From positions 1 through 32,945 of the forward strand of contig JBKJQM010000293.1 in NCBI GenBank assembly GCA_046594005.1: a stretch of 32,945 nt of DNA. The letters are read 5' to 3'. Made by a program: the position numbers and the translations under genes. This DNA is from Mycobacteriales bacterium. GTDB taxonomy: Bacteria; Actinomycetota; Actinomycetes; Mycobacteriales; SCTD01. The stretch's first letter is position 1. Every line of letters starts with the position of its first letter. Below are positions 1,691 to 32,945 of this stretch, one piece after another. Below the pieces are notes generated by a model. The model was not told where the DNA came from. It saw only the letters and a list, made by a program, of their open reading frames with translations, and did not search any database.

Positions 1691-1749
1691 GGAACCTCCC
1701 TTCGTCAGGCTCTTCCTACCTCCATCGCACGTCGGTGCACGGCGGACGG

Positions 1750-3162: not shown

Positions 3163-3182
3163 GCGCCGTCGTGCGCCGCTCG

Positions 3183-4028: not shown

Positions 4029-4031
4029 TGC

Positions 4032-5258: not shown

Positions 5259-5387
5259 GGCCGCATGCTAGCTGAGCGACCTACCAGCCGATCACTCCCC
5301 GCTCGTCGCACCGGCGGCCCTCGACGCGCAGCACGCCTCGGCACGGACCGCGACGGAGCACCGAGCGCAGGCGCAGGCGGGCCGCGT

Positions 5388-6956
5388 TCACAACCGGCGC
5401 GGCTCCTCCGCCGCCCGGACAGCGCGGGTGAGCGGCCGGACGAGGACCCCCAGACGCAGGGGCAGCGCTCCTGCCAGCCAGGCAGCGTCAGCCGTGTCGA
5501 GCAGCGGCATGCCGACGAGGCCCAGAGCCCACGCCGCGGCGGCGAACACCAGCACCGTGGCTGCGCCTCCTGCAAGCACGCCGGGAAGTCCGCCTGCGGC
5601 CACCGCGGCCGCACCGGACACGCCGGCGAGGCCGCTTGCCGCAGCGCCCGCGCACCAACCGCGCGGGTCCAAGGGTGCGCGTCCGAGCGACCGCCAGGTC
5701 AGCGCGACCAGCACGACTGCTGCAGCGCCCTGCGCGGCCAACGTGGTGACGACCGCACCGCTTGCGCTGAAGCGAGGGATGAGCGCCAACGCCAGCGAGA
5801 TCTCGACCACGGCCCCCACGAGCCCCGCAGCTATGGGCAGTCTCAGCAGCCCGCGACCGGACCAGTAGGACGTGGCCAACCGGCCCGCGGGTATGAGCAC
5901 GGCACCCAGTCCGATCACGCGCGTGAGGTCCGCGGCTTCGGCGAACGCCTCGCCGTAGACGGCGAGGACGACAGCGGGTCCCACCGTCACGATCAGTGCC
6001 GTGAGCGGCAGCGACAGGAGCACGGTGACGCGCATCGCGCGCACGAAGGCCTCCTGGGAGCGCGCGGTGTCGCCCGTGCCCGAGGCAGCGGCTACCGCCG
6101 GCATCGCTGCGCCTGCCAGGGCAGCAGGCAAGGTCACGGCCGCTGTGACCAGCATGGCTGCCACGGAGTAGTGCGCGATCGCCGTGCCCGACTGGTAGGC
6201 GCCGAGGAAGAGGATCTCCAGGCGGCCGCTGACGATCTGGGCCAGTGCAGCTCCCGCTGCAAAGACCAGCCAAAGCCGGCGCATGCCTTGCCGCGGGAGA
6301 CCCGGTCCACGCGGCGCGCGAGTGCTGCGGGCTTCGCTGCGCAGGAGCAGCAGGAGCACGGCGCTGGCCGCCGCCGCCGCAAGGAAGATTCCGGCCACCC
6401 CGAGCCCGCCGAGCAGCGCCGCGATGCCCAGGACGACCGCAAGGATCTGCGTCACGAGCCGCCGGCGAGCAACCGGCGCCCATCCGTCTCGGGCGATCGA
6501 GCGACTTGACCAGGCCCAGCACAGGGCGTCCAGCGCGACGGTGGCCGCCATGGCCAGCCACGCGGCGGCGAGCTGGCCCCGGAGCAGTCCGACACCGATC
6601 AGCACGGCCGCCACGGCCGCCCCGGCGGACAGGTGCGCCCACAGCGACCAGCGCTGGAGGGCAGCGAGGCCTGCCGGGTGGCTGGCGTGCGCGGCCGAGA
6701 GCGACCGGATCGAGGCGTCGGTGAGCGAGGTGAGGAGCAAGGCGCTCAAGAGGGTGCCCGTGAAGGCCACGAGGCTCTGCTGTCCGAGCAGCTCGGGCCC
6801 CAGCACACGGCCTGCGACGACGGACAGGCCGGCTGTGGCCAGGAACGGCACGAGGGTGCTGGCCGCCACCCACATTCCGGAGGCAAGGATCGCCCGGCGT
6901 CCTGGCGGCAGCCCGGGCGGCGGCTGCGGGTCCGCGTACGCCCCGCCGAGCGTCAC
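5388..6956 (-). CDS. wzx: Polysaccharide flippase, MOP/Wzx family
   Basis: Only the C-terminal 522 codons of track ORF 5388..8240 look like a protein (about 12-14 hydrophobic helices). The GTG at 6956 overlaps the TGA of the upstream gene (GTGA, 6953-6956). An ATG further inside (MWVAAST) is an alternative start. Confidence 0.8.
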   Translation of the reverse strand: MTLGGAYADPQPPPGLPPGRRAILASGMWVAASTLVPFLATAGLSVVAGRVLGPELLGQQSLVAFTGTLLSALLLTSLTDASIRSLSAAHASHPAGLAALQRWSLWAHLSAGAAVAAVLIGVGLLRGQLAAAWLAMAATVALDALCWAWSSRSIARDGWAPVARRRLVTQILAVVLGIAALLGGLGVAGIFLAAAAASAVLLLLLRSEARSTRAPRGPGLPRQGMRRLWLVFAAGAALAQIVSGRLEILFLGAYQSGTAIAHYSVAAMLVTAAVTLPAALAGAAMPAVAAASGTGDTARSQEAFVRAMRVTVLLSLPLTALIVTVGPAVVLAVYGEAFAEAADLTRVIGLGAVLIPAGRLATSYWSGRGLLRLPIAAGLVGAVVEISLALALIPRFSASGAVVTTLAAQGAAAVVLVALTWRSLGRAPLDPRGWCAGAAASGLAGVSGAAAVAAGGLPGVLAGGAATVLVFAAAAWALGLVGMPLLDTADAAWLAGALPLRLGVLVRPLTRAVRAAEEPRRL

Positions 6957-8266
6957 GCGACGTCGACCAGAGCCGGCAGCGGGGGCAGGCGGGGCGGAGC
7001 CGGACCGGCCGGCTGGGTGTTCCTGAGCAGCAGCGCCACGACCGCGAGGGCACCGGTGACCGGCACCAGGCGACCTTGCGTCCAGTACAGGTAGCGCGGC
7101 AGCTCCAGCACGCCGACGAAGACGACCGGGTAGGCCAGCAGCCCGACCACCGCTCCGTCCCGGAAGAGCACCCACAGCCGCCCCAGCAGCAGTCCGGCCA
7201 CGAGCATGAAGAGCAGACCACCGACAGTGCCGAAGTCCACGAAGGGTGAGCAGATGCCGCAGGGGTTGTTGAACTCGGGGTTGGTGTGCGCCCGCAGCAC
7301 CTGCGCATACACCTCGGTCGCGCTGCGCCCGGTCAACCGGGTGTAGAGGTCGAGCTGCGCGATGCCCGGCGCCGTCCAGAAGGCTTCCAGGCTGAAGTAG
7401 GGCAGCCGACCCGGGAAGTGCCCGAACTGGAGCTGCGCTGCGCCGTTGTTGTACGCGGTGGCGTAGTACCCGGCGAGGCGGTCGACGACGAACTCCGGGT
7501 AGGACGACGTGGTCCGGGTGCGGAAGAAGGTCCAGCTCCGCGAGTACTCGAAGATGCCGAACAGGACGACGAGACCGGGTAGTCCCACGGCCGGTGCCAA
7601 CGCCGCGCGCAGGTCGCCCCGGCGTTGTCGCGCCACCGCGACGACCAGGATGAAGGGCACCACCACCTCGATGAGCGCGAGTCGCTCGGTGAGGTAGAAG
7701 GCGCGCAGCAGCCCGAGCACGACGACGACGGCCATCCTGCGCGCGACGAGCGCCTGCCGGCCGCTCGTCCAGCACAGCGCGGCCAAGGTGCTGTACGCCA
7801 CCCCCAGCTGGGTGAACGACGTGATGCCGGCTATCGGAGCGAAGGCCCTCTCGATGTCGCCGGAGAAGTTGTCCTGCTGCGTCAGCGCAGACAGGAGCAC
7901 GCCCGGTGAGGCGCCGCGCAGGGCGCCCGCAGCCCCCAGGCACACGTAGCCGAACATCGTCAGCCCGAAGCACACCGCAGCGGCGCGCTCCAGCACGTCG
8001 AGCTGCGCGGAGTCCAGGGCGGCCCACCGGTCCGGCCAGCGCCGTGGAGCTGCTGCCAGAGCGACGAGCACGCCCAGGAGCAGCGTGCCTGCGGCGGCGG
8101 CGAACAGCAGGCTCGTCGTGTCGTCGAGCAGACGCGGCGTTCGGTAGAGCAGCCGGAAGCTCAGGTCCGAGGTCGACCAGGCCAGCCAGATGGACACCGG
8201 GAGGACGAGGAGCAGACCGCCGACAGGGGACGCCCACCACAGACCGTGGGCCGGTCCCCGGCTCAC
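6953..8266 (-). CDS. Polytopic membrane protein, oligosaccharide repeat-unit polymerase (Wzy-like)
   Basis: 437 aa and multi-TM, with a large loop containing YSRSWTFFRTRTTSSYPEFVVDRLAGYYATAYNNG. It sits between a co-polymerase gene and the flippase gene. Its start overlaps the upstream stop (8263-8266). Confidence 0.65.
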   Translation of the reverse strand: MSRGPAHGLWWASPVGGLLLVLPVSIWLAWSTSDLSFRLLYRTPRLLDDTTSLLFAAAAGTLLLGVLVALAAAPRRWPDRWAALDSAQLDVLERAAAVCFGLTMFGYVCLGAAGALRGASPGVLLSALTQQDNFSGDIERAFAPIAGITSFTQLGVAYSTLAALCWTSGRQALVARRMAVVVVLGLLRAFYLTERLALIEVVVPFILVVAVARQRRGDLRAALAPAVGLPGLVVLFGIFEYSRSWTFFRTRTTSSYPEFVVDRLAGYYATAYNNGAAQLQFGHFPGRLPYFSLEAFWTAPGIAQLDLYTRLTGRSATEVYAQVLRAHTNPEFNNPCGICSPFVDFGTVGGLLFMLVAGLLLGRLWVLFRDGAVVGLLAYPVVFVGVLELPRYLYWTQGRLVPVTGALAVVALLLRNTQPAGPAPPRLPPLPALVDVA

Positions 8267-10167
8267 TGCCTGGCGCTCTGCTGCAGCGGGTCGAGGGCTC
8301 CGACGGCCGCGGTCACGTCCGGCGACTCATCAGACGTGCCCGCGGCAGCTGTCGGCTCGTCCCCAACCAGTGGTGGTGCAGCCTCTTCGACCGGCCGCGT
8401 GCTGCTCGGTCCGGTCCTTCGCCCGGCGCGCCGGGCCCAGGATCCGGCCGTGGCGGCGGCAGGTGCCTGCTGCACGGCCTCGACCGCGGGTGGCTGCTCG
8501 ACGGCTTCGACGATCGCAGGTGGCTGCTCGACGGCTTCGACCGCGGGTGCCTGCTCGACGGCCTCGACCGCAGGTGGCAGCTCGACGGCGTCGACCGCGG
8601 GTGCCTGCTCAGGCGCTGCATCGGCAGCGTCGGCGCTCGGGCCCAGGTCCTGCGGACCGCCCGGCAGCGCCGGCGACTGCTGCGGGTCCCGGGACCGGCG
8701 CAGGCCTGCCACGCGTGCACCGAGGCGGTGCGCCCGGCGGGGGTGGACGAGGAGCGCGCCGAGCAGGGGGATCGCCTGCCGCTCGAACATCTGCTGGACC
8801 GTCTCGACGTCGGCGCGGTGGGTGACGTAGCGACCCACGACCAGCACCGCACCGCCCGCTCGCTCGGCGAAGTCCACTGTCGTCGTCGAGTCCGACAGGG
8901 ACGGCGCGTCGACCACGACGGTCATGCCCGTGCCGATGCACGCGTCGAGCAGCCCCTGCGCCGACAGCTCCCGCAGCAGCAGGCGGTCACCGTCGCCCGG
9001 CCCTCGGGCCAGCACGAGGACGCCGGGGACGCTGCTCGACACGGCAGAGGCGAAGACGTCGCCAGGCGTCAGGATGCCGGTCGGCGCCGTCGTGAGACCC
9101 CGGTCGGCCCCGGCGACGCCCAGCTTGTGGGCCGCGGTCCCGTCGCGCCCCTGGATCACGTCGGCCGCCAGCACGAGGAGCACGTCCGAGCGCTCGGACA
9201 GGCACACGGCCGCCGCGGCCGCCGTGAAGCTCGTGCCGACTCGCGACGTCGCGCCGAGCAGGACCAGGACGCCGCCACGGCCGGGCCGGACGAGCTGCGC
9301 GACGAGCAGCCGCAGCGCCCTGGCTGCAGGCCCCTGCCCGGCGAAGTCCTCGAGCCCCCCGGAGTGGTGACGCAGCTCCGGGTGCAGGACCGGGAAGCCC
9401 CCGCCGGCGAGGTCTGCCCCCGAGCGCACCCGTCGCGTCAGCCGGTTGACCAGCATGAGGAGAAGGACTGCGAGGACCGCGCCGACGAGCGCGCCCAGTG
9501 CGCCGTCCCGTGTGACGGGCGGGACGCCGCCGCCACTGGCAGTGGGTGCTTGCACCACGGTCACCGACTGCTGCACGTCCGCCGTGGCCCGGTAGAGCCC
9601 GCTGCGCACCGCGAGCAGCCGGCCGTACTCGCCCCGCAGGGCGGACGCGCCCAGGCCATCGTCAGACAAGCTCTTCTCGAGGCGGCTGAGCTCTCCGTCC
9701 ACGATCGCCGCGGCCCGGTCGACCTGTGCCCGCAGGCGGGCCTCGCGATCAACCGAGTACGCGGCGATGACGGCTTGGACGGAGGACAGCGCGCGCGCCG
9801 ACGTCGCTGCCTCTGCGGTGACGCTGACGATGGTGCTTGACCCCACCTGCACCGCCGTGTAGCTCACGGGCTCGGAGCCACCCAGACGCTTCTCCACGTC
9901 CCGGTGCAGGCTCGGTCCGCTCAGGACGATGAGCTCGCTCTGCACCATCGCCGTCGGGTCCTCCTGAGGCGCCGGCACGTCCTGGTCGAGGGCGGACGGC
10001 AGCGCGACCGAGATGACCGCCTTGGCGCTCGGGAGCTGAGGATGTGCGCGAGCCGCTGCGAGGCCAGCAGTCCCTCCGAGCAGGCCACCGACGAGCAGGA
10101 AAACGAGCAGGACCAGCGGCCGTGGCCGCGCCGGCTGCAGGCGTGACGCCGTGTTCGCCACAGCCAT
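8263..10167 (-). CDS. Polysaccharide co-polymerase (Wzz-type, 2 TM plus coiled periplasmic region) fused to a BY-kinase-like P-loop domain and a repetitive C-terminal tail
   Basis: Start chosen at the ATG at 10167, preceded by AGGGAGG. The track start at 10257 adds 30 codons with visibly lower GC3. TM1 is PLVLLVFLLVGGLLGG and TM2 is LGALVGAVLAVLLLMLV. The P-loop region reads LGATSRVGTS (no Lys), and the Walker B-like motif is MTVVVDAPS. The tail contains PAVEAVEQ repeats. Confidence 0.75.
   Translation of the reverse strand: MAVANTASRLQPARPRPLVLLVFLLVGGLLGGTAGLAAARAHPQLPSAKAVISVALPSALDQDVPAPQEDPTAMVQSELIVLSGPSLHRDVEKRLGGSEPVSYTAVQVGSSTIVSVTAEAATSARALSSVQAVIAAYSVDREARLRAQVDRAAAIVDGELSRLEKSLSDDGLGASALRGEYGRLLAVRSGLYRATADVQQSVTVVQAPTASGGGVPPVTRDGALGALVGAVLAVLLLMLVNRLTRRVRSGADLAGGGFPVLHPELRHHSGGLEDFAGQGPAARALRLLVAQLVRPGRGGVLVLLGATSRVGTSFTAAAAAVCLSERSDVLLVLAADVIQGRDGTAAHKLGVAGADRGLTTAPTGILTPGDVFASAVSSSVPGVLVLARGPGDGDRLLLRELSAQGLLDACIGTGMTVVVDAPSLSDSTTTVDFAERAGGAVLVVGRYVTHRADVETVQQMFERQAIPLLGALLVHPRRAHRLGARVAGLRRSRDPQQSPALPGGPQDLGPSADAADAAPEQAPAVDAVELPPAVEAVEQAPAVEAVEQPPAIVEAVEQPPAVEAVQQAPAAATAGSWARRAGRRTGPSSTRPVEEAAPPLVGDEPTAAAGTSDESPDVTAAVGALDPLQQSARQ
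8467..8610 (-). repeat. In-frame tandem repeat, five units of 27 nt (one of 30 nt) plus a partial unit, encoding (A/P)PAVEAVEQ
   Basis: On the + strand the units start at 8467, 8494, 8524, 8551 and 8578, with a partial unit at 8605. The consensus is ctgctcgacggcttcgaccgcgggtgg. The repeat lies inside the 3' end of the co-polymerase CDS. Confidence 0.9.
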
Positions 10168-16100: not shown

Positions 16101-16427
16101 CTAGCGCTCCGGCGGCGGCGGTGGCAGACCCACGACGACCAGGCCCCGTACGTGCAGGTCCACGTAGAGGTCCAGGGCGAGTGCCGCGGGGGGGACGGCC
16201 CCGGTGAGGACGACCATCCCCAGGTCTTCGACGCGTTCCAGGGCGGCCGTCACAGCGGCCGTGCCGCTGCTGGCGACCACGACCGCGACCGGCCGTACCA
16301 CCGCGTCGGGCACCTGCAGCCGCGCGCCGAGCAGCCGACGCACCTCGTCGGCCAGCAGGCCGGTCCCTGCGACCTCCACCCGGTCCGCGCCCGGGGGGAG
16401 CGCGGCGAGGACGTCCTGGGCGCTCAC
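16101..16427 (-). CDS. Small protein resembling the C-terminal half of an MDR (zinc-ADH-like) nucleotide-binding domain
   Basis: The GTG at 16427 overlaps the upstream TGA (GTGA, 16424-16427). GC3 is near 100 percent. VAVVVASSGTAAVTAALERVEDLGMVVLTGAV...LHVRGLVVVG parallels AVVIEATGDPAAVGGAVAAARDGGTVVLLGSS...RRVRLVGAHV in the neighbouring gene. Confidence 0.55.
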   Translation of the reverse strand: MSAQDVLAALPPGADRVEVAGTGLLADEVRRLLGARLQVPDAVVRPVAVVVASSGTAAVTAALERVEDLGMVVLTGAVPPAALALDLYVDLHVRGLVVVGLPPPPPER

Positions 16428-18676
16428 GGCCGCGGTCCCGCGAGCTGCACCGGCTGCCGTCCGCCCGTGCGGATGGACCGGTAGACCGCGTCGACGACGG
16501 CCTGCACGGCGAGCCCGTCCGCGGCGGTGACGTCAGGCTGGCGCCCCTCGAGGACGCACGCCGCGAAGCGCTCGACGAAGGCGGTGCGCTCGTCCACCGG
16601 CACGGCCGGGAGCGTGTTCCACCTGCCGGGGAGCAGGCCCGGCAGCGCGCGCTCGGTGTACAGCCGCGGCTCCGGTTCGAGCTGCACGGTGCCGATCTCT
16701 CCCCACAGCTCCAGGCGCGATGCCGGTGCACCGCGCGTGCTGGCCGAGCCGAGCAGCGTGCCGACCGCTCCTCCTTCGAAGCGCACGCTCACCGCGACCG
16801 AGTCCTCCACGTCCCGTCCGGCGGCCTGGCGGGCGACGGCGCTCACCTCCACGGCGTCGCACCCGCTGACGAAGCGGAGCAGGTCCACGTGGTGCGCCAA
16901 GTTCATGATCATGACACCCCCGCCGGCACGGGCCCGGCTGGAACGCCAGTCGGAGGCAGCCCTGCCGGAGAAGCCGCCCTGCCAGTACGACGGTGGCTTG
17001 TCGGCGTGGAAGACGACGGCTGCCCCCTGGAAGGCGCCGAGCGCGCCGGAGCGCACCAGCGCCCGGGCTGCCGCCGGCGCAGCCTCGTAGCGGTAGGGGA
17101 AGCAGACCGACAGCGTCACTCCGGCACGCTCGGCGACCTCGACCGCAGCCAGGGCCGCGGCCAGGTCGACGGCCAGGGGCTTCTCCACCACGATGTGGAG
17201 GCCGGCGAGCGCCGCCTGCTCGACCAGGGGCAGGTGCAGGTCGTGCGGGACGGAGAGCAGGACGGCGTCCACGCGCGCCGGGTCGAGCGCCTGCTCGAGC
17301 GTGGCCACGACCCGCCCGCCGTACTCCGCCGCCACCGCCGCTGCCAGCGCGGGCTCGGTGTCGTGGACGAGGACCAGCTCGGTGTTGGCCGCCCGCGACA
17401 CCGCTCGTGCGTTGCCGGCACCGATGTCGCCACAGCCGACGAGCGCGAAGCGCAGCGGACGACGGGACGGGACCGGCCGCGAGGGCGAGGGTGCAGGGAC
17501 CGTGCCGACCAGAGCGGGCAGCACCGGTCGCTGGGCCGGCGACCGCAGCTGCGACCGCTGGCCGGAGGACAGCAGTCGCCAGTCGAGGTGCGCCGAGCGC
17601 AGACCGCCCTCGGCGAGCCGCCGGTAGACCAGCCCGATCTCCCGGGGGTCCACGGCCTCGCCGGCCAGATCCGCGGCCGGCAGCGTGCCGGCGGCGACGC
17701 CGTCCAGGAAGTCCAGGGCCAGAGCCCGGAAGGGATCGTCCGGCACCCTCTTGGCCTCCGTCGCCAGCGCACTCACGTGGGCGCCCACGAGCCGGACCCG
17801 ACGCTCCTGCAGCTCGGCCACAGGGACGGATCGCGAGACACCCCGGGAGGACCCGAGCAGCACCACGGTGCCGCCGTCCCGCGCCGCGGCCACCGCACCG
17901 CCGACGGCTGCGGGGTCGCCGGTCGCCTCGATGACCACGGCGGCTGCGAGATCCGTCAGCCCGGCCTCCACGAGGCGGAACCCCGCTCCTGACCGGGCCA
18001 CGGTGTCGGCGTGGCGCCCGGTGCGGGCGACGACCGTCAGGGGGCCCGCCCCCGCCTGACGGGCGAGTCGCAGCGCGAGCGCACCGATGGGCCCGCTGCC
18101 GAGCACGCACAGCGGCTCGCCCGGCACGAGCTGCGCCCGGCGCACCCCGTACCCGCTGATGATGGCCAGGTAGACCAGTGCCGCCTGCTCGACGGGGACG
18201 CCGTCCGGCACGCGCACCGCCCAGGCCGCCGGCACGGTCGCCACGGACGCGTGCGGCGCGCGCGGCACCGCCACGAGGTCTCCGACCGACAGCCCCTGGA
18301 CGTCGGGTCCGACGGCGAGGACGTGGCCCGCTCCCGAGTAGCCGGGCCGGTAGGGCAGCTCCGGCTGGGCGTGCGGGAGCCGGAGCCACTGCGCACGCTC
18401 GGTGCCGGGGCTGATCGACGACACCACGAGCTCGACGGTCACCTCGCCAGGGCCGGCCAGCGGCACCTCCACCGGGACCAGCTCGGCGCGGCCGACGCGC
18501 GGCACGAGGACGCCCACGCCGGCGACCGAGCCGCGGCGACCGCGGGTCTGGCGACGAACCCGCACCCAGTCGCGCACCGGACTGCGCGCGACCACGAGGT
18601 CCGGGCCTGTGTACCCCTGACGGATCAGGACCAGGTCGACGGCTCGCCCTGCCAGCTCCTTCGCCCGACTGACCAC
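16424..18676 (-). CDS. Two-domain oxidoreductase: N-terminal MDR/ADH-like domain fused to a C-terminal Gfo/Idh/MocA domain
   Basis: 750 aa. The N-terminal domain has SSISPGTE (no Cys zinc ligands), GYSGAG and VLGSGPIGALA. The C-terminal domain has FALVGCGDIGAGN (Rossmann), VVEKPLA (EKP motif) and MIMNLAHHVD. Confidence 0.85.
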   Translation of the reverse strand: MVSRAKELAGRAVDLVLIRQGYTGPDLVVARSPVRDWVRVRRQTRGRRGSVAGVGVLVPRVGRAELVPVEVPLAGPGEVTVELVVSSISPGTERAQWLRLPHAQPELPYRPGYSGAGHVLAVGPDVQGLSVGDLVAVPRAPHASVATVPAAWAVRVPDGVPVEQAALVYLAIISGYGVRRAQLVPGEPLCVLGSGPIGALALRLARQAGAGPLTVVARTGRHADTVARSGAGFRLVEAGLTDLAAAVVIEATGDPAAVGGAVAAARDGGTVVLLGSSRGVSRSVPVAELQERRVRLVGAHVSALATEAKRVPDDPFRALALDFLDGVAAGTLPAADLAGEAVDPREIGLVYRRLAEGGLRSAHLDWRLLSSGQRSQLRSPAQRPVLPALVGTVPAPSPSRPVPSRRPLRFALVGCGDIGAGNARAVSRAANTELVLVHDTEPALAAAVAAEYGGRVVATLEQALDPARVDAVLLSVPHDLHLPLVEQAALAGLHIVVEKPLAVDLAAALAAVEVAERAGVTLSVCFPYRYEAAPAAARALVRSGALGAFQGAAVVFHADKPPSYWQGGFSGRAASDWRSSRARAGGGVMIMNLAHHVDLLRFVSGCDAVEVSAVARQAAGRDVEDSVAVSVRFEGGAVGTLLGSASTRGAPASRLELWGEIGTVQLEPEPRLYTERALPGLLPGRWNTLPAVPVDERTAFVERFAACVLEGRQPDVTAADGLAVQAVVDAVYRSIRTGGRQPVQLAGPRP

Positions 18677-24114: not shown

Positions 24115-25293
24115 TCAGCCGAGCTGCGTGACCCGGAAGGGCACGTCGAGGACGACGGTCCGGTCGCGGACTCGTGCGGGGTCGCCGTGCAGGGTGAAGC
24201 TGGCGGCGGTCTCCTCGTAGTGCACGTTGTCCTCCTTGTCCCCGAGCCAGACACCGAGGGTGTACTCGCCGTGCGCGAGCACCGGCGGCAGGGAGATCTC
24301 GGCGCGGTACCGCCCGACCCCGAAGGCCGCCTCGTGGTTGTGGCTCATGGTCTCGTCCACGACGCGCACGCCGTGGTCGTTCGTGATGAAGATGGAGAGG
24401 TCCAGGCCTACGCGCGGCTCGAGCATCTCGAACTCCACGACCACCGTCAGTGGGTCCTCCCGGAGCAGCGGCCCGTCCCCGCCCTTCGTGGCCCGCACGT
24501 TCACAGCGGTCAGGCGGCCGGCCTCGGAGCCGCCCATGAAGGAGGTCCCGCCGCCGATGAGCTCGTAGCCCGACGTCAGGTAGTCGCGGACGACCTGGTG
24601 GGTCGGGCCGTCGTCGACGACCTGCCCGCGCTCGAGCCAGACGGTGCGCGCGCAGAGCTTGCTGAGGCTGCTCAGGTCGTGGCTGACGAAGACCACCGTG
24701 CGCCCCTCGGCCTCGGCCAGCGACATCCGGCCCAGGCACTTGCGCTGGAACTCGGCGTCGCCGACCGCGAGCACCTCGTCGACGATGAGGATGTCGGGGT
24801 CGAGGTGCGCCGCCACCGCGAAGGCGAGGCGCAGGTACATCCCGCTCGAGAAGCGCTTCACGGGCGTGTCGAGGAAGCGCTCGGTGCCGGCGAAGTCGAC
24901 GATCTCGTCGAAACGGGCGGCCGTCTCCCGCCGGGTCATCCCGAGGATCGCCGCGTTCAGGAAGACGTTCTCCCGGCCGGTGAGCTCGGGGTGGAAGCCG
25001 GTGCCGACCTCGAGCAGAGCCGCGACCCGGCCGCGGGTCCGGCTCACGCCCTCGGTCGGCGTGGTGATGCGCATCAGCACCTTGAGGATGGTGCTCTTGC
25101 CCGCGCCGTTGCGACCGATGAGGCCCAGGGCCTGGCCGTCCGCGACCGCGAAGCTCACGTCCCGCAGCGACCAGAGGTCCCGGTCCTGCGGGCGGTGCCG
25201 CCGGCCGAGCTGGAGCACGGTCTCCCGCAGGTTGCCGCGCTCGCCGAGCCGGTAGCGCTTGCTCAGGTGCTCGACCTGGATGCGGTCGCTCAC
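24115..25293 (-). CDS. wzt: ABC transporter ATP-binding protein for glycan export (Wzt/TagH type) with a C-terminal extension of about 150 aa
   Basis: Walker A GRNGAGKST, signature FSSGMYLRL, Walker B ILIVDE and H-loop FVSHD. The C-terminal domain is beta-rich (VVEFEMLEPRVGLDLSIFITNDHGVRVVDE...YTLGVWLGD). The GTG start directly abuts the wzm stop. Confidence 0.9.
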   Translation of the reverse strand: MSDRIQVEHLSKRYRLGERGNLRETVLQLGRRHRPQDRDLWSLRDVSFAVADGQALGLIGRNGAGKSTILKVLMRITTPTEGVSRTRGRVAALLEVGTGFHPELTGRENVFLNAAILGMTRRETAARFDEIVDFAGTERFLDTPVKRFSSGMYLRLAFAVAAHLDPDILIVDEVLAVGDAEFQRKCLGRMSLAEAEGRTVVFVSHDLSSLSKLCARTVWLERGQVVDDGPTHQVVRDYLTSGYELIGGGTSFMGGSEAGRLTAVNVRATKGGDGPLLREDPLTVVVEFEMLEPRVGLDLSIFITNDHGVRVVDETMSHNHEAAFGVGRYRAEISLPPVLAHGEYTLGVWLGDKEDNVHYEETAASFTLHGDPARVRDRTVVLDVPFRVTQLG

Positions 25294-26118
25294 TCAGATC
25301 ACGTCGGCGAAGGACCGGGAAGCCCGCAGGAAGTACACGACTCCCGCCACGGCGAGCACTACGGCCATGGCCGTGGACACGGCCAGCGTGGCGTCCGGTG
25401 CCGGGCCGGAGACCAGGACGAACCTCCCTAGCTCCAGGACGCCCACCGCCGGGTTGAGCGCGTAGAGGTAGCGGGACGCGCCGTCGAGCGACTGCGCGGA
25501 GTAGGCCACCGGGCTCAGGAACAGGAAAGCCTGCAGGACCGGTGAGACGAGGTGGCGCACGTCCCGGAACCGCACGTTGAGCGCCGCGAGCGCGCAGGTC
25601 ACGCCTAGTGCAGTGAGGGCGAGCAGGGCGAGCCACACGGGCAGCAGCAGGAGGGCCGCTGACGGGGCCACGCCGTACAAGAGGCAGAGCAGCAGCAGCA
25701 GCAGCAGGCCGACGCCGAGGTCGATCATGGGCGGCAGCAGCGAGGCCAGCGGCGCGATGAGGCGCGGGAAGTAGACCTTGGTGATCAGGGAGCTGTTGCC
25801 GACCAGCACCTCGCTGCCCTTGCCGATGCACTGCGACAGGTAGTTCCAGCCGAGCAGACCGGCCAGCGCGAAGACGGGATAGGGCGTTCCACCGGTGTCG
25901 ATGTCCGCCAGCCGGTCGAAGACCAGGGTGAACGCGAGCACCGTGATGACCGGCTGCGCCACCACCCACAGCACGCCGAGCACGGCCTGCTTGTAGCGCA
26001 CCCGCAGGTCGCGGGAGGCGAAGAACAGCACCAGCTCACGGCCTGCCCACAGCTCCGGCAACGACGCCCGAACGCTGGTGCGGGGGCCGTTCTCGAGCCA
26101 CGGCCCCGTCGTCGCCAT
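25294..26118 (-). CDS. wzm: ABC-2 type transporter permease for glycan export (Wzm/TagG type)
   Basis: 274 aa. RDLRVRYKQAVLGVLWVVAQP is the hallmark ABC-2 N-terminal motif. There are 6 hydrophobic segments. Confidence 0.9.
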   Translation of the reverse strand: MATTGPWLENGPRTSVRASLPELWAGRELVLFFASRDLRVRYKQAVLGVLWVVAQPVITVLAFTLVFDRLADIDTGGTPYPVFALAGLLGWNYLSQCIGKGSEVLVGNSSLITKVYFPRLIAPLASLLPPMIDLGVGLLLLLLLCLLYGVAPSAALLLLPVWLALLALTALGVTCALAALNVRFRDVRHLVSPVLQAFLFLSPVAYSAQSLDGASRYLYALNPAVGVLELGRFVLVSGPAPDATLAVSTAMAVVLAVAGVVYFLRASRSFADVI

Positions 26119-26458: not shown

Positions 26459-28162
26459 GTGCCCGCCGCCGCGTTGTCCCGACGCGACGTGCTGCTCGCC
26501 GCCGCCGGGGGCCTGGTCCTTCCCCCCTTGCTGTTCTGGCCCTTGCTGCGCGAGCTCGGGTCCGCGGTACCGAAGGACGTCGGCGACCCGCTGCCCCAGG
26601 CGTGGCAGCTGGCCTGGGGGGGCCATGCACTGCGGTCGCAGCCGCTCGACCTGTTCCAGTCGAACCAGTTCTTCCCCGGCCGCAACACACTGGCGTACTC
26701 GGACTCGCTGCTCGGCTACGCCCCGGCGGGACTGCTGGGCAGCGGCCCCGGCGATGCGGTGCTGCGCTACGACGTGCTCTTCCTCCTCGCCCCTGCGCTG
26801 GCGTTCGCCGCCACGTTCCTGCTGGCACGGCAGCTCGGGCTGGGCCGGAGTGGTGCCGCGGTGGCCGGCGTCGCCTTCGGGTTCTCGCCGTACCGGCTGG
26901 AGCAGTTCAACCACCTGCACGTCCTGAGCAGCGGCGGCATCCCGCTGGCGCTGCTGCTGCTCCTGCGCGGGCACGGTCGCGGTGACCCGCGGACGGTCTT
27001 CGCCGGCTGGGCTGTCACCGCCTGGCAGCTGACGCTCGGCTTCTCCCTCGGCCTGCTGCTCGTCTACCTCATCGGCGGCATCTGGCTGTGGCTGCTTGTC
27101 GAGTGGCTGCGTGACGGACGTCCGGCGCTGACCCGGAGCACTCTCACGGGCCATGTCGCCGGCCTCTCGCTCCTCGCGGGGACGGCGTTCCTGGTCGCCC
27201 AGCCGTACTTAGCAGTCGTCGAGGAGTTTCCCGAGGCGCGACGCACACTCGCGGACACAGCACGCTTCTCCGGGCCGTTGGTGTGGTCCTACCTGTCGGC
27301 GGCGGAGGAGTCGACGCTCTGGGGGCCGCTGACCTCAGGGGCACGACAGCACCTCACCTTCGCGTCCGAGCAGACGCTGTTCCCTGGGCTGACGGTCGTG
27401 CTACTCGGACTGTCTGGCCTGCTGTGGCGCAGAGCGCCGCTCGATCGTCGCCTCCGAGTGTTCCTCGCTGTCGCAGTGACAGCGTGCGCCGCCTTCGCCC
27501 TGGGAACCGCGGCTGAGGGTGCGCGCAGCTTCAGCCCCTACCGGCTGCTGTACGAACTGGCGCCAGGGTTCCAGGCGGTGCGGGTGCCTGGTCGCATCAC
27601 GACGCTGACGACGCTGGGACTGTCGGTGCTGGCCGGCTGCGGTGCCCAGCGGTGGGCCGGTGCCGTCGCCGCACGTTGGCCCCGCCTCGCTCCCTGGGCT
27701 GCCGCCGGCCTGGTCGGGCTCGTGCTGTTCGAGGGCTCTTCACTGCGGACGCAGGACGAGGACCCCGGTTCTTTCCGCACCCCGATCGTGGAGGCCCCTC
27801 CTGTGAGCTTTGCGGACGTCAAGGGGCCGGCGCTGCACCTGCCGGCCGAGCCGGAGGACAACCGTCGCTACCTGCTGTGGTCCACGGACGGTTTCGAGGA
27901 CATGGCGAACGGGCGGTCCAGCCTGGTGCCTCAGCGGTTCCTGGACCTGGTGGAGGGCGCAGCGACCTTCCCGGACCGCGAGTCGGTCGCGCGAGTGCGC
28001 GCCTTCGGACTGTGCACGGTGGCCCTCCATCGTGCGCACCTGGCAGGCACGCCCTGGCAGGCGTGGCAGGACCGCTCCATCCAGGGGCTCGGCATCCGTC
28101 GCACCGTCTGGGAAGACCTGGTCGTCTACGACCTCAATACGCCAGGGGGCGCCTGCCGCTGA
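26459..28162 (+). CDS. Polytopic membrane protein, possible GT-C-like glycosyltransferase with a C-terminal soluble domain
   Basis: GTG at 26459; 567 aa. The first loop reads VPKDVGDPLPQAWQLAWGGHAL, and there are about 10 hydrophobic helices. The last roughly 150 aa are soluble (YLLWSTDGFEDMANGRSS). Confidence 0.7.
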   Translation: MPAAALSRRDVLLAAAGGLVLPPLLFWPLLRELGSAVPKDVGDPLPQAWQLAWGGHALRSQPLDLFQSNQFFPGRNTLAYSDSLLGYAPAGLLGSGPGDAVLRYDVLFLLAPALAFAATFLLARQLGLGRSGAAVAGVAFGFSPYRLEQFNHLHVLSSGGIPLALLLLLRGHGRGDPRTVFAGWAVTAWQLTLGFSLGLLLVYLIGGIWLWLLVEWLRDGRPALTRSTLTGHVAGLSLLAGTAFLVAQPYLAVVEEFPEARRTLADTARFSGPLVWSYLSAAEESTLWGPLTSGARQHLTFASEQTLFPGLTVVLLGLSGLLWRRAPLDRRLRVFLAVAVTACAAFALGTAAEGARSFSPYRLLYELAPGFQAVRVPGRITTLTTLGLSVLAGCGAQRWAGAVAARWPRLAPWAAAGLVGLVLFEGSSLRTQDEDPGSFRTPIVEAPPVSFADVKGPALHLPAEPEDNRRYLLWSTDGFEDMANGRSSLVPQRFLDLVEGAATFPDRESVARVRAFGLCTVALHRAHLAGTPWQAWQDRSIQGLGIRRTVWEDLVVYDLNTPGGACR

Positions 28163-28165
28163 CCA

Positions 28166-28475
28166 CTACCGGGCCGCGAAGTAATTGGCCTCGGGGTGAT
28201 GGGCAACGATCGCCGACGTCGGCTGCTCGGGAGTCAGCTGGAAGCCCTCCCTCACCTCGACGCCGATCCCCTCGCACTCCAGCACGGCCGCGACCTTGGT
28301 CGGGTCCTCGACGTCCGGGCAGGCCGGTGGCCCCACACGTAGCGGGCGCCGCGGTGCTCGAACGTCGAGATCCCCGAGAGGTCGCGCTTCCTCGTCGGCG
28401 CAGCCGAGCTCGGCGCGCACCCGGGCATGCCAGAACTCCGCCAGCGGCACCGGCAGGTCTTGCAACTCGCGGTAC
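28166..28475 (-). pseudogene. Decayed copy of the 3' end (last roughly 100 codons) of metH
   Basis: Track ORF 28166..28465 translates to ...LAEFWHARVRAELG...PACPDVEDPTKVA...GFQLTPEQPTSAIVAHHPEANYFAAR. This parallels the intact metH end: LAEFWHARVRAELG...YPACPDVEDQTKVA...EFQLTPEQSTSAIIAHHPEAKYFAAR. My hand alignment with 31638 onward gives about 20 mismatches in the first 160 nt, then a 1-nt deletion near 28329 and a 2-nt deletion near 28387. The codons between the two deletions are frameshifted. Confidence 0.9.
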
Positions 28476-28479
28476 GCGC

Positions 28480-28692
28480 GTGCCTGTGCTGAGCCTGCTC
28501 GCGTCGCGCCTTCTGCAGTGGTCCGGCCTGGTCTCCTACGCGGTGTTCCTGTGGCACGAGCCGCTGATCTGGTCCCGGCGGCGGCACGGCTGGACCTCCG
28601 CCGGTCGGCTGGGGTTCGGACTGGCGCTGCTCCTGACGGCGTGCACGGTCGTTCCCATCGCGCTCTTCAGCTGGCGACTGGTCGAGAGGCCG
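28480..28692 (+). pseudogene. C-terminal remnant (about 70 codons) of an acyltransferase family 3 (OafA/YrhL-type) gene
   Basis: LSLLASRLLQWSGLVSYAVFLWHEPLIW...LLLTACTVVPIALFSWRLVERP matches the conserved AT3 C-terminus (G.iSY.iYLwH.P ... s.rlvE.P). No upstream AT3 body exists; the frame abuts the metH remnant at about 28476-28480. Confidence 0.6.
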
Positions 28693-28699
28693 GCGGGTG

Positions 28700-29065
28700 A
28701 CGGGCAGGAACGAGACACCGGGGACCCTCGGCGCAGCCACCCGTGCGCAGCCGGCGACTTCAGCGGACGCGACGCCCGACGGCGGGTCCGCCATCACGCT
28801 GGACCCGGACGGGTCGACGCCGAGCCGGCCCGCGACGGTCGAGTAGGGCGGTCGGGCTTGCCGATCAGCACGTCGTCGCCGGCCAGCGTCAGCGCGAACG
28901 GCCCGACCCCTGGGCGCGGCCCGCGTCGACCAGCACGCGTAAGACGACCCACACCAGCGCCACCGGCAGCCCCTCGGGATCGTGTGCTCAGAGGAGCTCA
29001 CCAGCGGCCGGCATCCGCGACGACAGGTGCCATACCAGGGCGAGTCAGGAGCATCCGTCCCAGGG
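28700..29065 (-). pseudogene. Decayed copy of the 3' half of the HAD hydrolase gene found intact at 30896..31561
   Basis: The - strand reads PPYSTVAGRLGVDPSGSSVMADPPSGVASAEVAGCARVAAP, against the intact PEPYLTAAARLGVVPSRCVVLEDSPSGVASGEAAGCAVVAVP. Further upstream it reads MPAAGELL*AHDPEGLPVALVWVVLRVLVDA, against MPGVADLLSELDGQGVPMALVSSSYRVLVDA. There is an in-frame TGA at 28988-28990 and a 1-nt deletion near 28915. The boundaries are approximate. Confidence 0.8.
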
Positions 29066-29095
29066 GTCACAGTTCTGTGGCCCACGTGGCCTGTC

Positions 29096-30784
29096 ATGAA
29101 TGGGCAACAGAGCGTAACGTCTGCATTTGCCCGGCTTGTGAGCCCTGGGGGGGACGTGTTCGGATCGGGGCGGTTGCGCGTCGCCGGCGACGGCGCTGAC
29201 GTCGGCGGCTGGCTCAGTGCGACCTCGGCTGCCACCGAGGCCGAACCCGGGCAGCGCGCCGGGGGCCCCGCGCGCCACCGGGTGCTCGACCTCGACCGTG
29301 GGTTGGACCTTGACTGCCTGCGTCCGGCGAGCAACTCGAACAGGCCCGTCGCGCCGTCCTCCGCAAGCCCGGAGTCGCCGGTCCTCGATGTCGACACGGA
29401 CGTCGTCACCGAGCGAGCTGACCGAGCACCTTGGTTCGCGAGGTTCGGCTCCGGCCTGGTGCTCGCAGGGCTGGACATCTCCACGGCCACCACCGTGGGG
29501 ACGATGGTCGTCGTCGGGACCGGTCAGCCGCTCCGCGTCGTCGCGATGTCCCTGGGACTCGTGCTCAGCTTCCGCGCGACGGGGCTGTACCGGCGCCGGC
29601 TGTCCTTCTCCGCCCTCGACGATGCGCCGTTCCTCGTCGGGGGTGCGCTGCTCGCCACTGCTGGGGTGCTTGCCGTAGCGCTGATGCAGGGGCAGGCCAT
29701 CACGCCGCAGGGAGCAAGGGACGCCGGCTTCCTCGTCACGGTCCTGGTCAGCGCCTTGCTGCTGGAGCGCACGATGACGTACTGGGGGCTGCGTCGCTGC
29801 CGTCGCGCCGGGCTGTTCTGCGAGCGCGCTCTCGTCATCGGTGCCGGCCACGTCGGCCAGCGGCTCGTGCGGAACCTGCAGGAGCACCTCGAGTACGGCC
29901 TGGTCCCGATCGGTTTCCTCGACTCACACCCCCGCGTGGGCACCGCAGACGAGCTCCCCGCCCCGGTGCTGGGCGGCTACTCGAAGCTGGCGGACGTCAT
30001 CCGCGAGTACCGCATCACGAGGGTCATCGTCGCGTTCAGCGCCGTCCGCGAGGCGGGGCTGGTCGACGTGCTGCGCACGTGCGACCGGCTCGACTGCGAG
30101 CTCTCCTTCGTACCGCGGCTCTTCGAGCTCCACCGCCGGACCCGGTCCATGGACGAGGTCTGGGGCCTCCCGCTCATGCACATGCGCCGCGCCCCCTTCC
30201 GCTCCTTCTCCTGGCGGCTGAAGCGCGTCTTCGACATCGTCATGGCTGCGACGGGCCTGCTGCTGCTCGCGCCGGTGCTCGCTGCGTGCGCCCTGCTGGT
30301 CCGTCTCGAGAGCGGGCCGGGCGTGCTGTTCCGTCAGGAGCGGGTCGGGTTGGACGAGCGACCGTTCCAGATCCTCAAGTTCCGCACCCTGCGTCCCCTG
30401 GACGACGATGAGGCCGCGGTGCGCTGGACCGTGTCCGGCGATCCACGCATCGGGCCGGTCGGGCGCCTCATGCGCACGACCTCGCTCGACGAGCTGCCCC
30501 AGCTCTGGAACATCCTGACGGGCCGCATGAGCGTGGTGGGGCCGCGTCCTGAGCGGCGCCACTTCGTCAGCCAGTTCTCCAGCCACGTCCCGCGCTACAC
30601 CGCCCGGCACCGCGTTCCAGCGGGCCTGACGGGCTGGGCCCAGGTCCACGGCTTGCGCGGCAACACCTCCATCGAGGAGCGCGCGGTCTTCGACAACGCC
30701 TACGTGGAGAACTGGTCTCTCTGGGGCGACGTCAAGATCGTGCTGCGGACAGCCGGATCGGTGCTGCGCCGCACGGGCGGCTGA
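29096..30784 (+). CDS. Polyprenyl-phosphate sugar phosphotransferase (large WbaP/CpsE-type priming glycosyltransferase)
   Basis: Four N-terminal TM segments, a Rossmann-like middle domain (ALVIGAGHVGQRL) and a catalytic domain with KRVFDIVMA, FRQERVG, KFRTL, DELPQLWNIL and SVVGPRPE. The start is uncertain. The ATG at 29096 is followed by about 14 low-GC3 codons, so the GTG at 29138 or at 29156 is also plausible. Confidence 0.9.
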   Translation: MNGQQSVTSAFARLVSPGGDVFGSGRLRVAGDGADVGGWLSATSAATEAEPGQRAGGPARHRVLDLDRGLDLDCLRPASNSNRPVAPSSASPESPVLDVDTDVVTERADRAPWFARFGSGLVLAGLDISTATTVGTMVVVGTGQPLRVVAMSLGLVLSFRATGLYRRRLSFSALDDAPFLVGGALLATAGVLAVALMQGQAITPQGARDAGFLVTVLVSALLLERTMTYWGLRRCRRAGLFCERALVIGAGHVGQRLVRNLQEHLEYGLVPIGFLDSHPRVGTADELPAPVLGGYSKLADVIREYRITRVIVAFSAVREAGLVDVLRTCDRLDCELSFVPRLFELHRRTRSMDEVWGLPLMHMRRAPFRSFSWRLKRVFDIVMAATGLLLLAPVLAACALLVRLESGPGVLFRQERVGLDERPFQILKFRTLRPLDDDEAAVRWTVSGDPRIGPVGRLMRTTSLDELPQLWNILTGRMSVVGPRPERRHFVSQFSSHVPRYTARHRVPAGLTGWAQVHGLRGNTSIEERAVFDNAYVENWSLWGDVKIVLRTAGSVLRRTGG

Positions 30785-30895: not shown

Positions 30896-31561
30896 TCAGG
30901 GGCATGACGGCTGCACCAGTGCCCGCAGCGAATCGACGTCCAGCCCCACGAGGGACCCGACCACCACCCGGCGTGGACGCGGCTCGAGCACCACGCCAGC
31001 AATGCTCGGGACCGCGACGACCGCGCAGCCGGCCGCCTCGCCACTTGCGACGCCGGACGGGGAGTCCTCCAGCACCACGCACCGGGAGGGGACCACGCCG
31101 AGCCGGGCTGCCGCCGTGAGGTAGGGCTCGGGGTCCGGCTTGCCGCGGGTCACCTCGTCACCGGCGAGCGTGAACGCGAACGGACCGATCCCGTGGGCCA
31201 GCACCGCGTCGACGAGCACGCGGTACGACGAGGACACCAGCGCCATCGGCACCCCCTGGCCGTCCAGCTCCGACAGCAGGTCCGCGACGCCCGGCATCAA
31301 CGGCAGGTCGCCGGCGAACAGCTCGCGCATCCGGAGCAGCAGCCAGGCCGACGTCTCGGCAACGCGCGCCGCGGTGGCCTCGACCCCGAAGTACGTCAGG
31401 ATCCCGGGCACGGCGACGTCGAGCCGGGTCCCGACGACGCGCGCCTTGACCTCGTCGTCCCACTCGCCGCCGAGCGAGCGCGCGAGCTCGACCTCGGCCA
31501 CGGTCCACAGCGGCTCGCTGTCCACCAGCAGGCCGTCCATGTCCCACAGGACCGCGTCCAC
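30896..31561 (-). CDS. HAD-superfamily hydrolase (beta-phosphoglucomutase/phosphatase-like subfamily IA)
   Basis: Motif I is LWDMDGLLVDSE, motif II is LVSSS, motif III is RGKPDPEPY and motif IV is VLEDSPSGV. Start chosen at the GTG at 31561. The track start at 31582 adds 7 codons with poorer GC3. Confidence 0.85.
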   Translation of the reverse strand: MDAVLWDMDGLLVDSEPLWTVAEVELARSLGGEWDDEVKARVVGTRLDVAVPGILTYFGVEATAARVAETSAWLLLRMRELFAGDLPLMPGVADLLSELDGQGVPMALVSSSYRVLVDAVLAHGIGPFAFTLAGDEVTRGKPDPEPYLTAAARLGVVPSRCVVLEDSPSGVASGEAAGCAVVAVPSIAGVVLEPRPRRVVVGSLVGLDVDSLRALVQPSCP

Positions 31562-31638
31562 TAGCGGCGCACCGCGGTGCACAGGGCGCCGAGGAGCAGC
31601 AGGCCGAGCAGGGTGCGGGGGTCGGTGGTCGTCCCCAC
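31561..31638 (-). CDS. Candidate 25-codon micro-ORF encoding a hydrophobic peptide that bridges metH and the HAD gene
   Basis: GTG at 31638..31636 and TAG at 31563..31561. The peptide is VGTTTDPRTLLGLLLLGALCTAVRR. All 25 sense codons end in G or C. The start overlaps the metH TAG by 1 nt and the stop overlaps the HAD GTG by 1 nt (TAGTG at both ends). Confidence 0.4.
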   Translation of the reverse strand: MGTTTDPRTLLGLLLLGALCTAVRR

Positions 31639-32945
31639 TACCGGGCCGCGAAGTACTTGGCCTCGGGGTGATGGGCGATGATCGCCGACGTCGACTGCTC
31701 GGGCGTGAGCTGGAACTCCTCGCTCAGCTCGACGCCGATCCGGTCCCACTCCAGCAGCTCGGCGACCTTGGTCTGGTCCTCGACGTCGGGGCAGGCGGGG
31801 TAGCCCCAGGCGTAACGGGCGCCGCGGTGCTCCAGCTTGAGGATCCCGGACAGGTCGCGCGCGTCCTCGTCGCCGAAGCCCAGCTCGGCCCGCACCCGCG
31901 CGTGCCAGAACTCCGCCAGCGCCTCGGTCAGCTGCACGGACAGGCCGTGCAGCTCGAGGTACTCGCGGTAGGAGTCCTTGGCGAACAGGTCGCCGGCGAC
32001 CTCGCTCACCCGGCGGCCCATGGTCACGACCTGGAAGGCGACGACGTCGACCTCGCCGGACTCCTGCGGCCGCCAGAAGTCGGCCAGGCACAGCCGCCGG
32101 TCGCGGCGCTGGCGCGGGAAGGTGAAGCGTGCCCGCTCGTCGCCGGTGGAGGAGTCCAGCACGATCAGGTCGTCGCCCTTGGAGACCGCCGGGAAGTACC
32201 CGTGCACGACGGCGGCCTGCATGATGCCCTCGGTCTGCACCTGCGACAGCAGGGCGCGCAGCCGCGGCCGGCCCTCGGTCTCGACGAGCTCCTCGTAGGA
32301 GGGGCCGGCGCCGGCGCGCGAGCCGCGAAGCCCCCACTGGCCGAGGAACAGCGCCCGCTCGTCGATCCACGAGGCGTAGTCGGCCAGCGCGATGCCCTTG
32401 GTGATCCGCGAGCCCCAGAAGGGCGGTTCGGGGATGCGGTTGTCGGTCGCCACGTCCGAACGGCCGGCCGGCTCGTCGGAGGCCTCGTCGGCCTCCCGGG
32501 CCGCGCGCGACTCCGCGATCGCCCGGGAGCGCGCATGACGCGCCTTGCGCTCGTCGTCCTTGGCCTGCTGCTCCGCCGAGGCCTCGGGGGTCACGAGGCC
32601 GCGCTTCTCGCCCATCAGCTGGTCCATCAGGCGCAGGCCCTCGAAGGCGTCGCGCGCGTAGGTCACCCGTCCGTCGAACACCTCGTCGAGGTCCTGCTCG
32701 ACGTACGCCCTGGTGAGCGCCGCCCCGCCCAGGATGACCGGGTAGTTCGACGCCATCCCGCGGGAGTTCATCTCCAGCAGGTTCTCCTTCATGATCACCG
32801 TCGACTTGACGAGCAGCCCGGACATGCCGATGACGTCGGCGCCGTGCTCCTCGGCCGCCTCCAGGATGGCGTTGACCGGCTGCTTGATGCCGAGGTTGAC
32901 CACGGTGTAGCCGTTGTTGGACAGGATGATGTCGACGAGGTTCTT
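31638..32945 (-). CDS. metH: Cobalamin-dependent methionine synthase, 3' part (end of the B12-binding domain plus the AdoMet activation domain); 5' end outside the window
   Basis: The frame is open to the right edge (KNLVDIILSNNGYTVVNLGIKQ...). Supporting motifs are GADVIGMSGLLVKST and, in the activation domain, FWGSRI, RFTFPRQ, RGARYAWGYPACPD and IIAHHPEAKYF. Confidence 0.95.
   Translation of the reverse strand, partial: KNLVDIILSNNGYTVVNLGIKQPVNAILEAAEEHGADVIGMSGLLVKSTVIMKENLLEMNSRGMASNYPVILGGAALTRAYVEQDLDEVFDGRVTYARDAFEGLRLMDQLMGEKRGLVTPEASAEQQAKDDERKARHARSRAIAESRAAREADEASDEPAGRSDVATDNRIPEPPFWGSRITKGIALADYASWIDERALFLGQWGLRGSRAGAGPSYEELVETEGRPRLRALLSQVQTEGIMQAAVVHGYFPAVSKGDDLIVLDSSTGDERARFTFPRQRRDRRLCLADFWRPQESGEVDVVAFQVVTMGRRVSEVAGDLFAKDSYREYLELHGLSVQLTEALAEFWHARVRAELGFGDEDARDLSGILKLEHRGARYAWGYPACPDVEDQTKVAELLEWDRIGVELSEEFQLTPEQSTSAIIAHHPEAKYFAAR

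Follow-up and report, generated by a model that had tools for sequence, protein, structure and literature searches.

What is a broken piece of a phosphatase gene doing at the edge of a glycan cluster, a short way from an intact version of the same gene? The original prediction, made for the - strand of positions 28700-29065 in the DNA studied here, was that the interval is a decayed duplicate of a HAD hydrolase gene, covering its 3' half, and that pieces of both core genes flanking the priming transferase of the cluster, metH and HAD, had been copied. Here we consider what the piece is, where it came from and how it may have reached its present place.

The glycan locus and its remnant block

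The window, by which we mean the whole stretch of DNA analyzed, is an entire contig of 32,945 nt with a GC content of 73.8% and comes from a soil metagenome. Its nearest genomes are MAGs of uncultured Frankiales/Mycobacteriales-type actinobacteria, whose HAD proteins are 64-75% identical. Domain scans of the open reading frames place a polysaccharide biosynthesis cluster at 1-30784, with the HAD gene and then metH beyond it (Table 1); the contig termini fall within the cluster at one end and within metH at the other. Encoded in the cluster are glycosyltransferases of the GT1/GT4 and GT2 types, a Wzx/MurJ-like flippase, a deacetylase and a methyltransferase. The ABC-transporter export genes Wzm and Wzt (24115-26118, - strand) are found together with the Wzx/MurJ-like flippase ORF (5388-8240, -), and a 750-aa ORF (16424-18676, -) fuses zinc-ADH-like and GFO/IDH/MocA oxidoreductase domains. 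The 567-aa protein encoded beside Wzm/Wzt is a multi-pass membrane protein of coding-type composition with zero Pfam or NCBIfam matches, and may be a candidate for an uncharacterized polymerase, ligase or glycosyltransferase-C type enzyme. GC3 is 0.93-0.98 in metH, Wzt and Wzm and 0.85-0.89 in HAD and most of the remaining cluster genes, a variation that could reflect different origins or different expression levels. The N-terminal ~115-137 residues of the priming transferase ORF (29096-29500, +) are of low complexity and lie outside the TIGR03025/WcaJ models. The family model begins at about residue 138 and the start codon may lie downstream of 29096; the non-coding gap beside the HAD remnant is thus of uncertain length.

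Table 1. Features of the window discussed in the text, and independent metagenome contigs that cover the remnant block. Primes mark gene remnants.
Feature	Position	Strand	Description and basis
Wzt	24115-25293	-	glycan cluster
Wzm	25294-26118	-	glycan cluster
567-aa membrane protein gene	26459..28162	+	glycan cluster; stop codon 3 nt from the metH' stop codon
metH' remnant	28163..28480	-	last ~105 codons of methionine synthase plus stop; blastn, PF02965, phylogeny
AT' remnant	28477..28700	+	C-terminal ~70 residues (…SYAVFLWHEPLIW…FSWRLVERP) of an Acyl_transf_3 membrane acyltransferase; HMMER
HAD' remnant	28690..29014	-	homologous to codons 96-205 of the HAD-IA hydrolase; tblastn, blastn, pairwise alignment
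4-nt deletion in HAD', second frameshift	28848..28851	-	frame -1 to -3; tblastn, alignment
1-nt deletion in HAD', first frameshift	28909..28911	-	frame -2 to -1; tblastn, alignment
In-frame TGA in HAD'	28988..28990	-	tblastn, alignment, sequence
Lower-GC spacer	29015..29095		HAD' to first in-frame transferase ATG (29096); sequence, composition
Priming polyprenyl glycosylphosphotransferase	29096..30784	+	Bac_transf; TIGR03025 above cut-off
Intact resident HAD-IA hydrolase	30896..31582	-	beta-phosphoglucomutase-like sugar phosphatase family
Intact 3' part of metH	31638..32945	-	435 codons; exits at contig end
X1 contigs	27856-28835; 28817-29765		
X2 contigs	28015-28786; 28766-29153; 29147-29564		

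Between the body of the cluster (1-28162) and the priming transferase, near the metH-HAD pair, lies a block of about 850 bp (28163-29014) made up of three gene remnants, written here as metH', AT' and HAD'. Read along the - strand, the order is metH, HAD, the transferase (in the opposite orientation), HAD', AT' (opposite), metH' and the cluster. The source being a soil metagenome with many related strains, and many partial contigs of lower identity mapping to metH and HAD, such a mosaic might be suspected of being an assembly chimera that combines reads of several related soil actinobacteria. Logan contigs from two independent soil-metagenome runs, X1 and X2 (Table 1), however, bridge every junction with 0-1 differences and at a depth like that of the flanks, so that the mosaic is real DNA, and to an assembly artefact we give almost no weight.

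The HAD piece was delimited by searching the intact HAD protein against the whole window with tblastn, which gave three - strand HSPs beyond the self match, with a summed E value of 2e-14. They cover aa 96-133 at 29014-28901 in frame -2, with an in-frame stop, aa 131-150 at 28910-28851 in frame -1, and aa 153-205 at 28848-28690 in frame -3; every further match in the window had E >= 0.33. In blastn, 28745-28974 aligned with 31023-31257 at 74.6% identity over 236 nt (E 2e-37), and the nucleotide alignment with the resident gene displays three lesions. The homology that had been proposed for this interval is thus borne out, with altered limits: it runs from 28690 to 29014, positions 29015-29065 being unaligned in the pairwise alignment, and at its far end it does not stop at the SPSGVASGEAAGC block but goes on for ~20 residues to PRPRR (aa 205). 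The TGA is where it had been placed. The 1-nt deletion reported near 28915 is also present, at about 28910, and what had been described as a split over two frames is one over three, owing to an overlooked 4-nt deletion at about 28849.

By descent HAD' is a member of the HAD-IA family (PF13419 / TIGR01509), as judged by the tblastn score and by retained motifs, namely motif III (GKPD) and motif IV (D-x-x-x-G; ADPPSGVAS). It is without codons 1-95 and the final 23 codons, and the DxD nucleophile (DMDG in the resident protein, aa 14-17) has no counterpart in a piece that begins at codon 96. Lacking both gene ends, the catalytic DxD included, HAD' is incapable of encoding an enzyme, and its reading frame is interrupted by the TGA and by the -1 and -4 frameshifts. 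It is a disabled, dead gene fragment, much as the description of a truncated remnant from the 3' half of the gene had it, and no present function is expected. Two long ORFs that overlie the block, 28252-29493 (-) and 27652-29199 (+), were rejected as spurious; neither has a Pfam match at E<=10, the frame-specific GC does not support them, and they are the usual artefacts of high-GC DNA.

The second remnant, AT', came to light through its frame-specific GC profile, which pointed to former coding sequence (GC3 ~0.9). Its peptide, …LLQWSGLVSYAVFLWHEPLIW…FSWRLVERP, has no Pfam match on its own and gave no candidates in a word-index protein search. In an exhaustive HMMER search it had 349 matches at E<=1e-3, the best at 3e-16 with 61% identity; the relatives match near the C-terminus of proteins of ~400-430 aa, and all eight that were checked are Acyl_transf_3 proteins (PF01757). 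Neither the N-terminal part of this acyltransferase (AT3) gene nor an intact copy of it is present in the window. AT' and HAD' meet tail to tail at ~28690-28700, each without its last 23-35 codons; they may once have been convergent neighbors whose 3' ends were both lost in one deletion.

The third remnant, metH', is 81.7% identical to 31635-31967 (blastn, E 3e-92) and differs from it by indels of -1, -2 and -12 nt. The homology starts 3 nt past the remnant's own stop codon, and a 56-aa ORF inside it was called by a gene caller (P0156). The earlier remark that the metH remnant is not an isolated accident is well taken, HAD' lying only 200 bp off.

Descent of the HAD and metH remnants

The relationships of HAD' were examined against 80 loci with HAD relatives together with L081, a locus reached through the sole protein-database match of HAD'; the trees were built by neighbor joining with 500 bootstraps, on only ~325 informative nt. 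That sole match, P0001, is the HAD protein of L081, carries PF13419 and PF00702, and has 61% aa identity to HAD', against 57% for the resident protein. Over the 325 aligned nt HAD' is 68.0% identical to the resident gene, 70.5% to that of L081 and 67.7% to that of L077, and the resident gene is itself 81% identical to L081 and 79% to L001. Of the sites that distinguish the resident from L081, HAD' agrees with the resident at 17 and with L081 at 25; the corresponding counts are 25 vs. 22 for L001 and 35 vs. 34 for L077, none of these three differences being significant, and the counts are similarly balanced for six further genomes. In the bootstrap trees HAD' was sister to L077 in 196/500 (39%), to L081 in 79/500 (16%) and to the resident in 21/500.

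The same methods applied to metH' strongly favor the resident gene, and thus evidently have power. Here the remnant is sister to the resident metH in 500/500 bootstraps and shares 30-62 sites with it vs. 9-13 with the orthologues (p 1e-3 to 8e-9). A copy made by segmental duplication should stand phylogenetically nearest the resident gene, as metH' does and HAD' does not. For HAD', the notion of a copied piece of the neighboring core gene therefore fares badly, given the site counts against L081 and the few bootstraps that join it to the resident; judged by sequence comparison, HAD' is a member of the resident's orthologous group, yet of a lineage distinct from that of the resident gene.

The pattern of change in HAD' points the same way. 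Its GC1/2/3 values of 0.80/0.56/0.90 are close to the 0.79/0.54/0.92 of the resident, and the differences between the two are distributed over the codon positions as 0.22/0.29/0.47, with the third-position excess of functional orthologues and some excess at positions 1 and 2. A truncated gene fragment is not under purifying selection. Coding-type composition and third-position excess in a fragment on which selection cannot act imply that most of the divergence arose in a functional gene elsewhere, and most of it is thus older than the inactivation. Changes unique to HAD' at otherwise conserved sites, polarized with outgroups, number 8/18/6 by codon position, which suggests some 10-15% of relaxed decay on top of orthologue-level divergence. 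HAD' is most likely a once-functional diverged allele or orthologue of the metH-linked HAD-IA phosphatase gene. No donor or intact counterpart was found for it in the databases, the fetched loci or the metagenome scan, where nothing exceeded 70.5% nt or 61% aa identity; when the donor arrangement was sought in metagenome contigs with the priming transferase, the best match was 43% identical, and those loci contained no HAD, metH or AT3 gene.

In metH' the lineage-specific changes fall on the three codon positions as 8/9/9, a uniformity indicating neutral decay of ~8%, and the divergence from the resident before that decay was only a few percent. The remnant derives from the resident lineage or from a very close relative, and taken alone metH' could be the product of a local duplication followed by ~8% neutral decay. 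The contrasting phylogeny and patterns of change mean that HAD' and metH' differ in source or in age.

The metH-HAD neighborhood in related genomes

Comparison with the related loci indicates how variable this neighborhood is. The metH and HAD genes are adjacent in L001, L003, L004, L081 and L132. Between them, L005 has a GH16 gene and three GT2 genes (5470-10001), L010 a GH16 gene and at least one GT2 gene (5454-10001), L007 an F420-type oxidoreductase and two GT2 genes (2815-5676), and L077 two priming Bac_transf genes (1199-5131), so that the metH-HAD gap exists in four different states among the relatives. HAD is followed by an aldolase II gene in L007, L077 and L081, and then by PDDEXK_1 in L007 and L081; there is no glycan cluster downstream of HAD in these three loci. 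The metH-HAD neighborhood is a site of recurrent gain and loss of glycan genes in this clade.

Some of these loci are themselves disordered. The second priming transferase of L077 (3390-5078) consists of CoA_binding_3 and two short Bac_transf pieces spread over several frames and runs on into the start of HAD, and the L077 HAD gene is itself recovered as two HSPs; these broken genes could be real pseudogenes or long-read frameshift errors. In the window, the 3' end of the resident metH has its nearest counterparts in L004 and L005 (86%), with L001 well behind at 76%, whereas the resident HAD gene most resembles those of L081 and L001 (79-81%) and is distant from those of L004 and L005 (70-75%). 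This incongruence (30896-32945) hints at recombination between lineages around the boundary of the two genes; sliding-window identity of the resident metH and HAD to the relatives gave a suggestive but noisy incongruence, from which no breakpoint was called. A tblastx comparison of the remnant region with the fetched loci was dominated by compositional noise of GC-rich DNA and was set aside.

Origin of the block

The geometry of the block bears directly on its origin. The offsets from remnant to intact copy are 2283 nt for HAD and 3472 nt for metH, and the order of metH' and HAD' is reversed relative to that of the intact genes, their orientation being the same. A duplicated block should be colinear with its source; the unequal offsets, the reversed order and the unrelated AT3 piece in between make a single segmental duplication impossible. 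At least two events are needed.

We regard HAD' as probably the recombination scar of a diverged HAD allele at the edge of a hot spot for glycan genes. Cassettes of glycan genes would have been exchanged repeatedly at the metH-HAD locus, with one crossover falling in the conserved flank, metH or HAD, and the second end joined illegitimately, through homology-facilitated illegitimate recombination or a similar end-joining/deletion event; each round would then strand a truncated piece of a flank gene of one partner beside an intact copy. HAD' might be the native copy, displaced by an incoming segment carrying HAD and the transferase, or else a passenger on incoming DNA, and a separate event would have stranded metH'; an AT3 gene of an earlier version of the cluster would also have been destroyed. 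It is from the anatomy of the block that we infer this mechanism. The block lies where the conserved flank genes give way to a variable glycan cluster, the same locus differs in gene content among related genomes, and the GC1/2/3 values and third-position excess of HAD' are those of a diverged allele functional until recently.

The simplest competing account is that part of the resident HAD gene was duplicated in situ beside the transferase and then decayed by point mutations and small deletions. HAD' lies only 2.3 kb from the resident gene and in the same orientation, the resident is its top blastn match (74.6% over the best 236 nt), and the neighboring metH' comes from the resident lineage with neutral-looking changes. 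Against this, HAD' shows no greater affinity to the resident than to the orthologues of nine other genomes, and the resident is far closer to L081 and L001 than to HAD', so that the duplication would have to be older than the divergence of all these genomes. Over so long a time, neutral decay would have erased the codon periodicity, yet a GC3 of 0.90 and a GC2 of 0.56 are retained, and it would have equalized the differences among codon positions, which remain strongly unequal; nor are the remnants colinear, with an unrelated AT3 piece between them. In-situ duplication of HAD is accordingly already disfavored, and we consider it improbable.

A different kind of account would have the remnants kept for a function, as direct repeats that allow the transferase to be excised or exchanged or as a promoter or 5' leader of the transferase. 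The transferase is indeed bracketed by the metH'/metH repeats (318 nt at 82-88% identity, including perfectly matching stretches of ~20 nt) and by the HAD'/HAD repeats (230 nt at 75% identity), and HAD' ends 82 bp upstream of the first transferase ATG. These identities are low for RecA-dependent recombination, though, and the same remnants occur in none of the relatives, so conservation offers no evidence. Apparent deletion joints in metagenome contigs turned out to be homologues from other organisms, matching partly the remnant and partly the resident gene, rather than a deletion form of the locus. Scans of the remnant region for Rfam families, promoter consensus or terminator, tRNAs and composition found nothing. 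A retained function of any of these kinds is very unlikely, and we would give an equally slim chance to the particular case in which the paired repeats serve as landing pads for excising or swapping the transferase segment, with or without HAD; were that so, the lineage could heritably turn its surface polysaccharide on or off, or exchange it.

An element integrating at the 3' end of metH was also considered, on account of the many short 'stand-alone' metH activation-domain proteins held in the public protein collection, and was rejected. Both of the contexts checked are artefacts, one protein being cut by a contig end and the other stemming from a frameshifted assembly (e.g. L131 1-363; L132 7494-10408), and the list of short C-terminal metH matches is itself biased by candidate selection; those who mine such fragments should be cautious. 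No integrase, recombinase, IS or other mobile-element genes are among the window ORFs scanned, and scans of the window and region gave no tRNA or att-like repeats; the marks of a site-specific integrating element (an integrase, a tRNA or att site, recurrent stand-alone metH 3' ends) are absent here.

Recombination scars of the kind we favor for HAD' are familiar from other loci. In Yersinia kristensenii O:11 remnants of galF and gnd flank an imported O-antigen cluster, and in Y. pseudotuberculosis the Abe module carries a tyv remnant produced by one homologous and one non-homologous, intragenic crossover (PMC5399914). As in these O-antigen and capsule loci, dead truncated flank or cluster genes lie here at module boundaries, and for the O-antigen remnants the published interpretation is likewise cassette import, with one homologous crossover and a second one within a gene (PMC5399914). 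Unlike the Yersinia loci, ours is in a high-GC soil actinobacterium and is flanked by metH and a HAD phosphatase gene, not by galF/gnd or hemH/gsk; it packs three remnants, the product of at least two events, into 850 bp, and no donor was found.

A second parallel comes from Clostridium botulinum. In type F6 the insert splits topB yet brings a complete topB with it, and remnants of older toxin genes persist; in type E the core gene split in this way, with an intact copy on the insert, is rarA (PMC3673618). There, as here, an intact copy and dead pieces adjoin at a recombination hot spot along with remnants of earlier cargo, a pattern interpreted for topB as several successive rounds of horizontal transfer (PMC3673618). 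The C. botulinum loci differ in having both halves of the split gene, a phage integrase and IS elements, in place of which we see a 3' internal piece only and no mobile-element genes. Homology-facilitated illegitimate recombination, in which one homologous anchor and one illegitimate end join foreign DNA, has been demonstrated in experiments on E. coli conjugation and on a small number of naturally competent species (PMC3240628); it predicts a truncated flank gene beside newly acquired DNA and is a candidate mechanism for junctions of this kind. In being truncated, in having a stop and frameshifts and in lying near an intact gene in the same orientation, HAD' also resembles an ordinary segmental-duplication pseudogene, but it is not phylogenetically nearest to the neighboring gene and is not colinear with metH'.

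The block is thus an ordinary and already well-known kind of genomic scar, with no new mechanism or function. Its three remnants form a small fossil record, in which the glycan locus by metH-HAD would have been rebuilt at least twice, with at least one diverged relative as recombination partner. This would extend the cassette turnover of O-antigen and capsule loci in Gram-negative and Gram-positive pathogens to a poorly studied actinobacterial clade, that of uncultured Frankiales/Mycobacteriales-like soil actinobacteria. For annotation, 28163-29014 is best marked as three pseudogene fragments in place of the long ORFs.
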